The notes below the pieces were generated by a model that ran no database searches, was not told the origin of the DNA, and saw only the letters and a list, made by a program, of their open reading frames with translations. 64,000 bases of DNA from a virus (taxonomy: Duplodnaviria; Caudoviricetes), in the IMG/VR virus record IMGVR_UViG_3300049793_000123, positions 1,919 to 65,918 of that record; one strand, written 5' to 3'. The position numbers and the translations under genes are program-made. This document shows, in pieces, positions 42,544 to 46,724 of the stretch (the first letter of the stretch is position 1; the number at the start of each line of letters is the position of its first letter).

Positions 42544-44517
42544 ATGAAGAAGATCATTCCAATCCTGCTACTCCTGTTCGTTGGTGTCGTGTTTGGGCAA
42601 GTTATTCCACCTCCGCAGCCACCAAGTGGCGGCTCCCAGACAAACTCATACCGGTTCAACAACACCCAGTTCTTGACTGCAAATGTCACGAACATTTCGA
42701 TCTTGAACGGGGCGTTGCTGACGAATGTGGTGCTGAAGACACCAGCCAACACGTCGTTCACCAACTTAGGGGCGTTGCTGTTCACAAATCGTGGTGGGTT
42801 GGCCAACTACGTGGCGACCTACGACAACAATCAGGTGCTCACCAACACTTGGGTGTCGACGACCAATCTCTCGGACTCGGTTCAGGCGACCACCAACTTT
42901 TTCAGCGTCAGCAACGGGGTGTCTTACATCCTGATCGGCAGCCCGTTCGCGTCATCGGGTGCCGCGCAGCAATACACCAACGGAAGTTACACCGGGTGGG
43001 GTGGCTGGATCGGCGCTCCACAGTGGATTGACCGGATCACGTTTTATGTCTGCCAGTGGGATGGCAGCAGTCCGATTACCACCGTCTCGGCGCGGTTGAG
43101 GAAGGATGGGCCGTTTGGCTCAATCATTTCCTCTAACTCCACTTCGGTCACGCCTGTCACCGGAACTCCGCTGGGCGTTTCACTTGATCTCGGGCAGACG
43201 CTCTACAACGCCGAACAGGCCAACCTGTGGCTGGAGTTCACTTGCAACGGAAAGAGCGGGTTCTACGGAAAATCCACAGGCACATACGATTTTCCGAGTT
43301 ACCCGATTGGCAGATACTACACGGTGCTGACTCCCGGCGCACCCGGAAACAGCTTGCGACTTGGGGCCACCACGAACTGCAACATGTTCGTCACTTATGA
43401 ACGCAGTCTTGGCACTGGCAGCACCCTGCTGACATCCGCAGCGGAATTGTTGGTGCAAGGCGCGGGCGCGAAGTTGACTGGAGCGACAAACCTCATCTTC
43501 CCGGAAGTGTCAGTTTACTTGCCGTTGACCAATTACTTCACCCCCGGCAGCCAGGGGAATTTGTTTTACAAAAACTTCATACGATCAACGGTGCCGTTGG
43601 AAAGTCTTGAGATTCTGCTTACGTGCTCAAAGGGAAGCGTGTTGGACGACAATTGGACCTATACTCCAACGCAGGCGGAGGTTGGGACGTATCAGATGAA
43701 TTTCGAGGTCAAGTGGAATGGCATGTCGCTCTACAACCGGCCAAGCTGGGTCAAGGTGGCGTCCACGAACGCCGGGATCGCGGTTAACCGAAAGGTGCTC
43801 ATTATCGGGGACTCGCTGACCGCAAACGCGATTTGGCCAGCCTACTTGGCTACCAACTTCGCCAACCTGCCGATGGACATCACCTTCATCGGAACGCAGG
43901 GACCAGTGGGCCAAAAGACGGAAGGCTACAGCGGCTACCGGTGGAATACTTTTGCGACCAATTCCAGCTCGCCTTTCGTGTTTGGTGGCGTGTTCAACTT
44001 CGCGACATACCTAGCGACCAACAGTTTCACGATGGCCTCCGGGGACTGGGTATTGTTTGAGATTGGCATCAATGACGTGTTCACGGAAACCAGCGACGCC
44101 AACGCGTTGCTGAACACACAGGCGGCGATGGCATACAGCCAAATGATGGTGAGCAACATTACCGCGACGGTCTCGGGCATTCGTATCGGCTTCCTTGGCA
44201 TCACGCCATTTGCGAGCCAGACGGCTTTCGGGCTCAATTACGGCACCCGTTCGCAAAAGCAATCACTGCGCAACCGGGACATCTATCAGGCCAACATGCT
44301 GGCCAACTGGGAGAACGGTTGCCCAAACAATCTTGGGGTGTGGGCTGGAACATCAGGCCAGCTCGACGGCCAGCACAACATGCAATGGCAGACTTTCCGG
44401 CCAAACGCCAACAATCCACAGATGGTGTACCAACAGATCGACGCCGTTCATCCTGATGAACCCGGCTACATCGACATGGCCGATGCCGTCCGTAACTTCC
44501 TCATTGGACAAGAATAA
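42544..44517 (+). CDS. signal-peptide-bearing protein with a C-terminal SGNH/GDSL hydrolase
   Basis: [40 protein letters not shown]. Confidence 0.85.
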
Positions 44518-44519
44518 CC

Positions 44520-46724
44520 ATGAAGACACTGCTCAAAATCCTTTTCTTTCTGGCGCTAGTTTTGCGCGTTTCAGCCAACCAATCCTGGCCGATTCTCAAC
44601 TACAACCCGACGAACGACTGGAACTTCCATCGCTCCACCAAGCCCGTCATTTTCGATATCCAAGGCGGATCACCGCTATTGCTCACACCGAGCGGGGTTC
44701 GACCCATCGGGCTGTCTCCATCCTCGGTGGTGTTTACGTCCTCGGACACGAATTTGACCACTACTGGAAGCATATCGGTTACAAACGGGGGCACGGGCCG
44801 GACTACCGCCATGTCAGCTTCAGGTGTCGTATTCCCAGACAGCAATGGGGCCTTGGCGAATGCGCCGACAAAGTTTGTTTACGACCCGACGAACTTCTTT
44901 GTTGGAATCGGACTTGGAAACCCTTCTTCGGCGCTTGATGTGCGCGTTAGTGGAGGCGCTCCATCCGCAACCTTTGGTCAGAAGACATCCTCCGGCACTG
45001 TCGGGGCTATCGGGTTGTTTGGAGGGCTTGATCTTGCGATTGTCCATTATTATCGCGACGGCACCAAGCTGGGCGGCATCACAACCAACACCGCCGACGT
45101 TACCGGACCTGGAAATATCGTCGTTTGGAACCACGAAACACTTGGGGTCGAGATGCCTCAGACCCTCACAGTCACCGGCAACATCACCAACACCGCCCTG
45201 ACGACAACGAGGCTGACCTACGCGACGACCGGCGGGAGATTGACGGCCAGCCCGCTCGCCACCGACGGCACGAGCATTGGATGGGGCACAGCCAGCCCAG
45301 TTGCACCGATTCACATTCTGTCGGGCGGAGCCACCCCGGCGTTTGTGGTGGGCACCCCAACCGGCACCGGCACGTCGAGTTCCATGCAAGTGGCCGGAGG
45401 TGTCAGGCGCGCGACATGGGCCTACCGGGATGGCACCCAGTATTCCTATTGGACCACGAATACTTTGGATCACACGGGCGCGGGCACGATGCTCCAATTG
45501 AACCATGTCACCTTGGGCGTGGAGGCTCCGAATACGTTGACCGTGACAGGGAACTTCACGAACACCGCTGTCACCGCCAGCCTTCCGGCCAAGTTTGGAA
45601 GCGGCAAGCAACTCACCAGCGGTGCCATCAACCTGAGTGGCTCCGAGGTCACTGGAAACCTGCCGGTTGGCAACCTCAACTCAGGCACCTCTGCAAGCTC
45701 ATCTACGTTTTGGCGCGGAGATGGGACTTGGGCTGCGCCCGCCGGAACTTTCAGCGGAACGCAGTTTGGATTGGCTTATTATCCAACCACGACCACGCTT
45801 GGGAGCACGGCGGCTGGCACCACCTCACAAGTGCTCATTGGAAACGCTTCAGGGGCTCCGACGTGGGGAGCAGTGCCAACTGCGGCCCTTCCAACCGTAA
45901 CAGAGGCGAAAGGTGGAACCGGCATTGACACTTCCTCCGTCACTCAAGGCCGTATTTTTTTCCAAAGCGGGGCCAGCACATTTGATTGGGACACCTACTT
46001 AAACTACAGCAAGTCAACCACCACGTTTTCAGTTGGGAATCCGAACGGGGATTTGACCAAGCAAACCCCGGGTTACTTCAAGAGTTATGTGTCAACGGAT
46101 TTTGACTACATGATTTCTCTGTTTAACACGAACACTGCAAGCTCAACATTGCATCAAGTGGGTGAGGCGGCGTATTTCGCCACCACGGCTGCGTGGAACG
46201 CGATTGAGGCCGGTGGAATAATTTACTCCAAGGAGCAGGAATGGACCGGCACCGCTTCCACGCAGGACGCGAAAATCATGTTCAGAGCAGCCAGAGATGG
46301 AAATCCGGTGACGCCAATGACGATATATGGATCAACAGGGAAGGTGGAGGTGGCTGCGGAGTTGAATGCAGCTACCGTAGTGGCGACTACCAGCATCACA
46401 TCGAATGGGGCTCTTAATGGCGGTGCGATCACAGCAACAGACCACATCACGATTAGCACAGCCGGAAAAGGATTGCGCATCAAGATGGGTGCGAACGCAA
46501 AAATGGGTCAGGCGATTTTAACCGGTGGAACCGTTACCATTAGCACAACCGCCATCACCGCATCTTCCTTGGTATTTCTTTCCAACGGACAGGCCGGAGG
46601 CGTTCCTGGAGTGTTGTCCGAGGACGCGGCATCGCGTGTGGCTGGCACATCCTTCAAGGTGGACTCCACTTCCGCTGCTGATGCGAGCGGAGTGAATTGG
46701 TTGATTATTGAGCCCGCCCCATGA
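44520..46724 (+). CDS. signal-peptide-bearing tail-fibre-like protein
   Basis: [20 protein letters not shown]; fibre motifs [18 protein letters not shown]...P...LDV; internal ~130-aa repeat. Confidence 0.7.

Follow-up and report, generated by a model that had tools for sequence, protein, structure and literature searches.

The present work concerns a 64,000-nucleotide stretch of a tailed-phage genome, referred to below as the window (bases 1919-65918 of the linear, 65,918-bp IMG/VR record IMGVR_UViG_3300049793_000123, which is 76% complete as estimated by CheckV), and two consecutive genes of its late operon whose products, a carbohydrate esterase and a fibre-like protein, both open with Sec-type leaders. 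The gene content, as given by Pfam and PHROG matches, is that of a tailed phage, and the record comes from soil. In our preferred reading, to which a probability of roughly 40% is given, the genes at 42133-48673 would form a lineage-specific 'envelope module' inserted in the late operon, and its exported receptor-binding-type proteins would dock on the particles at lysis. This reading draws on the sequences of the block and on analogy with cultured phages. The features discussed are collected in Table 1.

Both open reading frames (ORFs) were found where the preliminary description, made from the DNA letters alone, had placed them (42544-44517, 657 aa; 44520-46724, 734 aa), with the N-termini exactly as it had quoted them. 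The ATG of each gene is the first start codon past an in-frame stop, and it lies 6 nt (esterase) or 2 nt (fibre-like protein) after the preceding gene. Both leaders have the features of Sec-type substrates of signal peptidase I, namely a positively charged n-region, an uncharged hydrophobic core (h-region) some 7-15 residues long, and small side chains at positions −3 and −1. In the esterase, V at −3 and G at −1 (V-F-G/Q) place the predicted cut before Q19, after which a Pro-rich linker follows; in the fibre-like protein, V at −3 and A at −1 (V-S-A/N) place it before N20. A twin-arginine motif is absent from both leaders. Leaders were flagged throughout this study with a home-made rule of von Heijne style, not with a trained predictor such as SignalP. 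Within the window this rule flagged five of the 51 called genes, starting at 42544, 44520, 47331, 47658 and 58776, the last of them with a doubtful TTG start; the other four fall within 5.6 kb. The two further exported proteins that had been announced downstream were thus recovered, the product of 47331 with a lipobox and that of 47658 with a Sec-type leader. Given the canonical leaders, their position where leaderless relatives have other N-terminal modules, and the nearby genes for two membrane proteins, a lipoprotein and a further leader protein, export as proposed earlier is the best reading of the sequence, and both proteins are very probably exported from the cytoplasm.

By profile, catalytic blocks and predicted fold, the catalysis class of the first protein is SGNH-type carbohydrate O-acetylesterase. 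The PF00657 match covers residues 418-649 (26.7 bits, cutoff 23.6), PF13472 scored under its cutoff (23.1 versus 32.9), and phrog_26878 matched with E=1.3e-13. In the alignment with 12 homologues (A3), the blocks GDS, G, GxND and H are invariant (G422, D423, S424, G461, G508, N510, D511 and H636), and the Asp of block V (DxxH) was read by eye in IDAVHP. The AlphaFold2 (AF2) model is confident over residues 320-657, with a predicted local distance difference test score (pLDDT) mostly of 86-96 over residues 415-550 and of 57-86 nearer the C-terminus, and below 50 over residues 1-155. Foldseek matches of this model in the PDB are carbohydrate esterases (7tog, E=7e-8; 2vpt, TM-score by target 0.70) and a profile search matched CE3 esterases (5b5s, 1.3e-11); 7tog, 2vpt and 5b5s are secreted carbohydrate acetyl-esterases. 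Against BFVD, Foldseek retrieved phage SGNH proteins, several of which are named tail or fibre proteins.

The body of the esterase is of the receptor-binding type. Baseplate and receptor-binding proteins of Lactococcus phages align to its residues 318-653, and its residues 144-657 align to residues 215-733 of a leaderless 733-aa protein (P0002). As in the window, the 98203-type baseplate/receptor-binding protein of Lactococcus phage carries the SGNH esterase after beta-rich domains, and its gene adjoins a second fibre gene. Another virion-borne example is reportedly gp63.1 of phage G7C, said to be an O-antigen deacetylase and SGNH esterase tailspike. The virion-borne SGNH esterases differ in their N-terminal parts, which are absent from the window esterase, and in having no leader. 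Among esterase homologues, in which the preliminary description had proposed to check the leader, one was flagged in seven of nine short bacterial homologues, which are secreted enzymes, and in none of the 15 homologous SGNH ORFs of viral contigs, one of which (L214) starts with an uncharged hydrophobic stretch.

The second protein bears the fibre motifs that had been seen in it, namely the FWRGDGTW motif, common to 1061 database proteins, and a C-terminal K1-lyase_C domain (PF24146, E=1.8e-18), and its C-terminus matches the ends of Streptomyces phage tail-fibre proteins. It is probably glycan-binding. The AF2 monomer was poor (mean pLDDT 46.7), with an N-terminal helix (residues 2-15) as its sole confident element; poor monomer models are usual for trimeric fibres. 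A PDB sequence search with this protein gave no match. Its residues from about 66 to 140 align to leaderless fibres that open with a conserved M.D.KIS.LP..TTPLAGTEVLPIVQ module, which we take to be their tail-docking part. This module is absent from the window fibre, in which the leader and about 45 unique residues occupy its place. HMMER with residues 1-345 retrieved 29 proteins including the query, and the 28 others were weak matches, most of them at about residues 55-170.

The leader genes lie inside the virion operon, as had been stated: a PF07484 tail-collar fibre gene and a phrog_3287 gene stand on one side of them and a giant ORF of 2835 aa on the other. Intergenic gaps in the leader-gene stretch are of 2-57 nt. 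A scan for sigma-70-like promoters found no site inside the block where 3.5 were expected, non-sigma-70 promoters being outside its reach, and a terminator scan of the block gave nothing convincing. On these two results, the possibility that the block is a 'moron' with its own promoter and terminator was rejected. The tight packing and the lack of an internal promoter-like site point to late co-expression of the block genes.

In order to place the block among related phages, 50 homologues of the 831-aa virion protein encoded upstream of it were aligned and 52 related viral loci were retrieved; a single-sequence scan with the same protein had given none. In 20 of the 23 relatives with enough downstream DNA the genes flanking the block are adjacent: the 831-aa homologue is followed, in about half of these 20 after a gene of about 70 aa, by a gene of 300-360 aa, one of 300-510 aa and then the giant ORF. 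The other three relatives either lack the giant ORF or have a few additional small ORFs. This adjacency, together with the absence of the block genes from the 52 loci, makes the segment 42133-48673 (about 6.5 kb) lineage-specific. By this comparison of sequences the block is optional and acquired, as about twenty related phages carry the same virion operon without it.

The 831-aa protein itself is likely to be the lineage's own tailspike or receptor-binding protein, as judged from its pattern of conservation. Across the 50 homologues the N-terminal half is conserved and the C-terminal half variable, which are usual hallmarks of a receptor-binding protein, and, leaving aside P0134 (94% identical), 48 of the remaining 49 homologues align over just 35-61% of the query. 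Many of its cysteines are invariant or nearly so (C106, C160, C162, C418, C770 and others). Stop-codon recoding downstream of the 831-aa homologues was considered and rejected, since the signal was an artefact of ORFs being dropped at locus ends.

Leader-bearing fibres were also found outside this lineage. In 80 IMG/VR loci retrieved via the fibre motif, a leader or lipobox was flagged in 15 of the 69 distinct fibre-like ORFs that reach a length of 200 aa (one or two of the 15 doubtful by eye), as against 29 of the 523 remaining ORFs (odds ratio 4.7, p=3.5e-5). The remaining 54 fibre-like ORFs have none, which, together with the leaderless viral SGNH homologues, agrees with the earlier statement that tailed-phage fibres normally lack signal peptides. 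Directly after nine of the 15 leader-bearing fibres another leader-bearing large ORF follows, the fibre-like ORF of L001 carries a lipobox, and contigs L009, L029 and L048 fall in tail or internal-virion modules according to PHROG matches. An unrelated 39.9-kb viral contig (L068:9089-12423) encodes a leader-bearing fibre with K1-lyase_C (E=1.5e-16) and a leader-bearing carbohydrate acetylesterase of the SASA family, which matches the pairing in the window except for the reversed gene order. It was the only other esterase-fibre pair found; a hidden Markov model (HMM) of the A3 family matched no ORF in L001-L208. The leader-bearing viral loci range over 38-65% G+C. A link of leader-bearing fibres to hosts with low Shine-Dalgarno use found no support (medians 0.35 and 0.435, Mann-Whitney p=0.11, 13 versus 58 loci).

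Among the best database homologues, 56 of 119 have leaders. In bacterial genomes they were flagged in 39 of 66 motif-bearing ORFs; many of these ORFs belong to Bacteroidota and Acidobacteriota, and tandem arrangement is frequent. Two metagenome-assembled genomes of Bacteroidetes (L143 and L144) have tandem arrays of three leader-bearing FWRGDG-motif proteins of 447-940 aa. A literature search retrieved no account of phage fibres with Sec leaders, and the targets of phage diversity-generating retroelements are stated to have no signal peptides (PMC6199706).

The closest parallel in organization comes from cultured phages of Cellulophaga baltica. In phage phi10:1 (GenBank KC821618), gp091-gp094 bear the note 'structural protein, annotation based on experimental MS/MS proteomics analysis' (tandem mass spectrometry, MS/MS), the GenBank notes being our sole source for this detection. 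These four proteins and the pectate lyase gp095 all open with Sec-type leaders. Their genes lie 3' of the tail genes and 5' of genes for small membrane proteins and a glycosyl hydrolase/lysozyme. The source of the MS/MS annotation is reportedly Holmfeldt et al. 2013. Podovirus phi19:3 (KC821608) has five leader-bearing proteins (gp087-gp090 and gp094), four of which are annotated as structural by similarity. In myovirus phi17:2, gp054 (962 aa) has the same pectate-lyase-like tailspike body behind a different, leaderless N-terminus; this body (L229:1565-4453 versus L227:8101-10434) is thus leaderless in phi17:2 and leader-bearing in the siphovirus phi10:1 and the podovirus phi19:3. Like the window, the Cellulophaga phages have consecutive large late leader genes by the tail genes and ahead of small membrane or lysis genes, and their leader set includes a glycan-active tailspike-type enzyme as the window has a glycan esterase. 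However, there is no sequence relationship, as a tblastn search of 50,697 phage records with the two window proteins retrieved none from Cellulophaga phages. In addition, the Cellulophaga leader genes fill the fibre position, whereas those of the window form an extra block absent from relatives, and the hosts of the former are marine Bacteroidota while the window belongs to a soil phage.

In the textbook view, tailed phages are assembled entirely within the cytoplasm. In the preferred reading, host Sec would move both proteins across the inner membrane late in infection, signal peptidase I would remove the leaders after G18 (esterase) and A19 (fibre), and both mature proteins would fold in the periplasm. 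If the Cellulophaga MS/MS notes are a guide, they would reach the cytoplasm-built particles only when lysis breaks open the inner membrane, and the docked proteins may then serve as accessory host-recognition gear in which the fibre binds a surface glycan and the esterase deacetylates it. Most simply, the small membrane, lipoprotein and leader proteins encoded downstream would be lysis or envelope partners acquired together with them. Docking is favoured by the receptor-binding-type bodies, the late position of the genes, the lysis-like envelope genes in the block and the experimental hint from Cellulophaga.

Several points weigh against docking. None of the 52 related loci encodes a homologue of the esterase or the fibre, nor of any small block gene, and these relatives imply a particle that is functional without both proteins. 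The lineage, its relatives included, moreover retains leaderless receptor-binding candidates in the tail-collar fibre and the 831-aa protein. Comparison of the mature N-termini of the esterase and the fibre, with one another and with all other window proteins, revealed no common module, so that no docking element was recognized, and a whole-library HMMER search with fibre residues 1-345 found no orthologue covering the leader region. As the fibre contains no cysteine, disulfide formation gives no rationale for its folding in the periplasm. We know of no mechanism for docking after export, and the MS/MS detection in Cellulophaga phage could be that of co-purified secreted proteins.

The strongest alternative, nearly as probable as docking, is that both proteins are exported and never join the particle. 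They would work inside the periplasm, at the cell surface or as free proteins after lysis, the esterase deacetylating the receptor glycan and the fibre masking it, with less sticking to debris or a block to superinfection as the outcome, in the manner of Llp of T5, Cor or the surface fibres of Bdellovibrio. Small exported phage proteins encoded beside receptor-binding genes include T5 Llp, Cor of phi80/N15, and lambda Lom and Bor. They share with the 102-aa lipoprotein encoded at 47331 the Sec or lipoprotein leader and the place beside receptor-binding genes, and differ in being small outer-membrane proteins or lipoproteins without fibre or enzyme domains; no homology to them was found with Pfam, PHROG and NCBIfam. 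The accessory nature of the block, absent from 52 related loci whose flanking genes are adjacent in 20 of 23 cases, speaks for this alternative, as do the lack of a detected docking module and of the N-terminal module usual in leaderless relatives, the adjoining lipoprotein and second leader protein, and the frequency of leaders both in short bacterial esterase homologues, which are secreted, and in bacterial motif-bearing ORFs. The GT9-like and GT2 glycosyltransferases of the phage would also fit glycan remodelling.

A bacterial precedent exists as well. As described in the part of PMC10769870 available to us, the MAT fibres of Bdellovibrio bacteriovorus are phage-tail-fibre-like trimers with a signal peptide and a surface location, and in that account phage-fibre-like trimers are thus able to fold and function after Sec export. 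They differ from the window fibre in being encoded by a bacterium and shown on its own surface. Among themselves they have in common a beta-rich N-domain of about 130 aa that follows the signal peptide, and their tips are of beta-sandwich or, in many, of S74 chaperone type (the same portion of PMC10769870); no Pfam match to Peptidase_S74 was found in the window fibre. Against this alternative, surface action requires passage of the outer membrane, and no match to the type IX secretion system (T9SS) or to autotransporters was obtained with Pfam and NCBIfam. Late-operon expression is, in addition, ill-suited to superinfection exclusion, and the leader-bearing counterparts in cultured phage are annotated as particle-borne in the GenBank notes. 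The known receptor-blocking phage proteins are reportedly small lipoproteins and not receptor-binding-type proteins of 650-730 aa.

It is improbable that the N-termini are not cleaved export signals at all, being either uncleaved anchors or oligomerisation helices, or being bypassed by internal starts that yield a leaderless cytoplasmic form assembling normally. In-frame near-cognate starts do occur inside both leaders (GTG at codon 16 and TTG at codon 15), and Shine-Dalgarno-like sites are so infrequent in the window (nine of 51 genes) that they are no arbiter between alternative starts. The Pro-rich spacer after the esterase leader also recalls tethered envelope proteins. However, both ATGs are placed only 2-6 nt past the upstream stop, small residues stand at −3 and −1 in both leaders, and h-regions of 14 and 9 residues fall short of the length that a stable membrane helix requires, which favours cleavable signals over anchors. 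A docking helix would furthermore leave unexplained the enrichment of leaders in fibre-like viral ORFs, with the lipobox of L001 among them, and the neighbouring genes of the block carry a lipobox and a further leader.

Least probable is a lysis cassette, in which the exported esterase would prime the wall or capsule, for instance by removing O-acetyl groups that block muralytic enzymes, and the fibre would be a wall-binding partner of the holin- and spanin-like genes. In its favour, no endolysin was recognized in the 64-kb window (Pfam, PHROGs), membrane, transmembrane/coiled-coil and lipoprotein genes lie directly downstream, and exported phage lysis proteins are known, such as the T4 antiholin RI with its cleavable signal peptide (PMC8385771, in the portion available). 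Against it, the esterase body is most closely related to carbohydrate esterases and receptor-binding-type phage proteins and not to peptidoglycan esterases, the fibre motif and K1-lyase_C are typical of tail fibres, and none of the small proteins has a match among holin or spanin families. The endolysin search covered the window, with 1.9 kb of the record and, by estimate, a quarter of the genome lying outside it.

The remaining genes of the block are small. The first of them, a 134-aa ORF, had no homologue in the 52 related loci, and a weak match in L203 corresponds to a short Kelch-like motif only. For the 91-aa membrane protein the frame starting at 46728 was preferred over the overlapping one at 46721 on its G+C content at third codon positions (0.72 versus 0.45). 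The products of 47022 and 47331 fit a spanin pair in architecture and adjacency, although the former is just 83 aa long, the latter is not rich in proline, and no family match was obtained for either. The lipoprotein had a weak match to the lipo_YgdI_YgdR leader (E=0.004, below cutoff), and from its sequence could be an o-spanin-like or a receptor-blocking lipoprotein. Directly 3' of this spanin-like pair lies the gene for the 174-aa leader protein (47658-48182). The 162-aa coiled-coil ORF, of which no homologue was found in the relatives, may be the last gene of the block. Searches of NCBIfam with ten block proteins and of PADLOC with eight gave nothing above cutoff, and no match to a T9SS C-terminal domain.

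Table 1. Position, strand and main attributes of the features of the window discussed in the text
Feature	Position	Strand	Attributes
Replication and packaging gene set	28138-29697 (terminase large subunit)	−	terminase large subunit, DnaB helicase, RecT, exonuclease, C5 methylase, NAMPT, phosphoribosyl pyrophosphate (PRPP)-synthase-like gene
Late operon	30351-58279	+	holds tail and virion genes
Tail-collar fibre, 210 aa, without leader	37828-38460	+	PF07484
Virion protein, 831 aa, without leader	38460-40955	+	phrog_3287; homologues in related loci
Conserved virion-operon gene, 300 aa; left flank of block	41212-42114	+	homologues in relatives
ORF of 134 aa without leader; first gene of block	42133-42537	+	no Pfam, PHROG, NCBIfam or PADLOC match
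Leader-bearing SGNH/GDSL carbohydrate O-acetylesterase (predicted), 657 aa	42544-44517	+	phage receptor-binding-type body; PF00657, phrog_26878
Esterase leader	42544-42597	+	codons 1-18; n-region MKK (+2); h-region of 14 uncharged residues
SGNH catalytic domain	43786-44514	+	residues about 415-657; Ser424, Asn510, His636
Leader-bearing fibre-like protein, 734 aa	44520-46724	+	fibre motif, PF24146; no cysteine
Leader of fibre-like protein	44520-44576	+	codons 1-19; n-region MKTLLK (+2); h-region ILFFLALVL (9 residues)
Fibre motif, containing FWRGDGTW	45654-45740	+	residues about 379-407
K1-lyase_C domain, C-terminal	46494-46709	+	residues 659-730; phrog_24355 C-terminus
Membrane protein, 91 aa	46728-47003	+	hydrophobic span at about 41-67, weaker one at 75-88; no family match; holin-like by position only
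Protein of 83 aa	47022-47273	+	N-terminal transmembrane segment, helical charged C-terminal part; no family match; i-spanin-like by architecture only
Lipoprotein, 102 aa	47331-47639	+	lipobox ATSG/C; leader MKRSILTLIAALALATSG, followed by C
Protein of 174 aa with Sec-type leader	47658-48182	+	leader MKPFIIFLIASITLAIA, followed by A; Atlas search gave weak leads only; no known family
Coiled-coil ORF, 162 aa, without leader	48185-48673	+	ATG at 48185 right after the preceding stop; ORF list starts it at GTG 48119
Right flank of block: 358-aa ORF and giant 2835-aa ORF	48679-58279	+	giant ORF kept in relatives

Some other traits of the genome were recorded. The giant ORF (49772-58279, 2835 aa) had no Pfam or PHROG match, and at least 17 related viral loci encode a counterpart of >2200 aa; judged by its position, it probably encodes an internal or ejected virion protein. 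On the minus strand, 60139-63864 encodes a 796-aa protein with a GT9 (heptosyltransferase-like) segment, a GT2 glycosyltransferase and a DUF6745 protein, which suggests glycan modification by the phage; a homologue of the 796-aa protein is kept in two relatives (L128 and L133). NAMPT (phrog_448, E=2e-199) adjoins the ribose-phosphate pyrophosphokinase-like gene at 23147-25389 of the minus strand, a pair for NAD salvage as in other phages. A T4 Rnl1-type RNA ligase (phrog_562, E=1e-69) is encoded at 3846-5078, and ARAGORN found an unusually long tRNA-Arg(GCG) of 95 nt at 11568-11662. A small HTH_3 protein of Cro/CI type lies at 7811-8116 on the minus strand, and no integrase was seen in the window. 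No RNA datasets containing the stretch were listed; the one DNA run listed may be the source sample.

The window extends the trait beyond the phages of marine Bacteroidota, where cultured examples exist, and offers a clean natural comparison, with the same virion operon carrying the block here and lacking it in about twenty relatives. In addition, the cultured Cellulophaga phages make the question of docking directly testable. More generally, and more tentatively still than for the window itself, tailed phages may have a second, extracytoplasmic branch of assembly, in which Sec-exported fibres and glycan enzymes dock between the holin breach and the rupture of the outer membrane, the block being a mobile 'envelope module' that moves adsorption and lysis functions between phages. 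Should host-recognition proteins routinely use Sec, particle assembly would include an unrecognized late extracytoplasmic step. In that case, annotation pipelines that count signal peptides against a virion role would misclassify receptor-binding proteins, and engineered or cell-free phage production would need the export machinery of the host.

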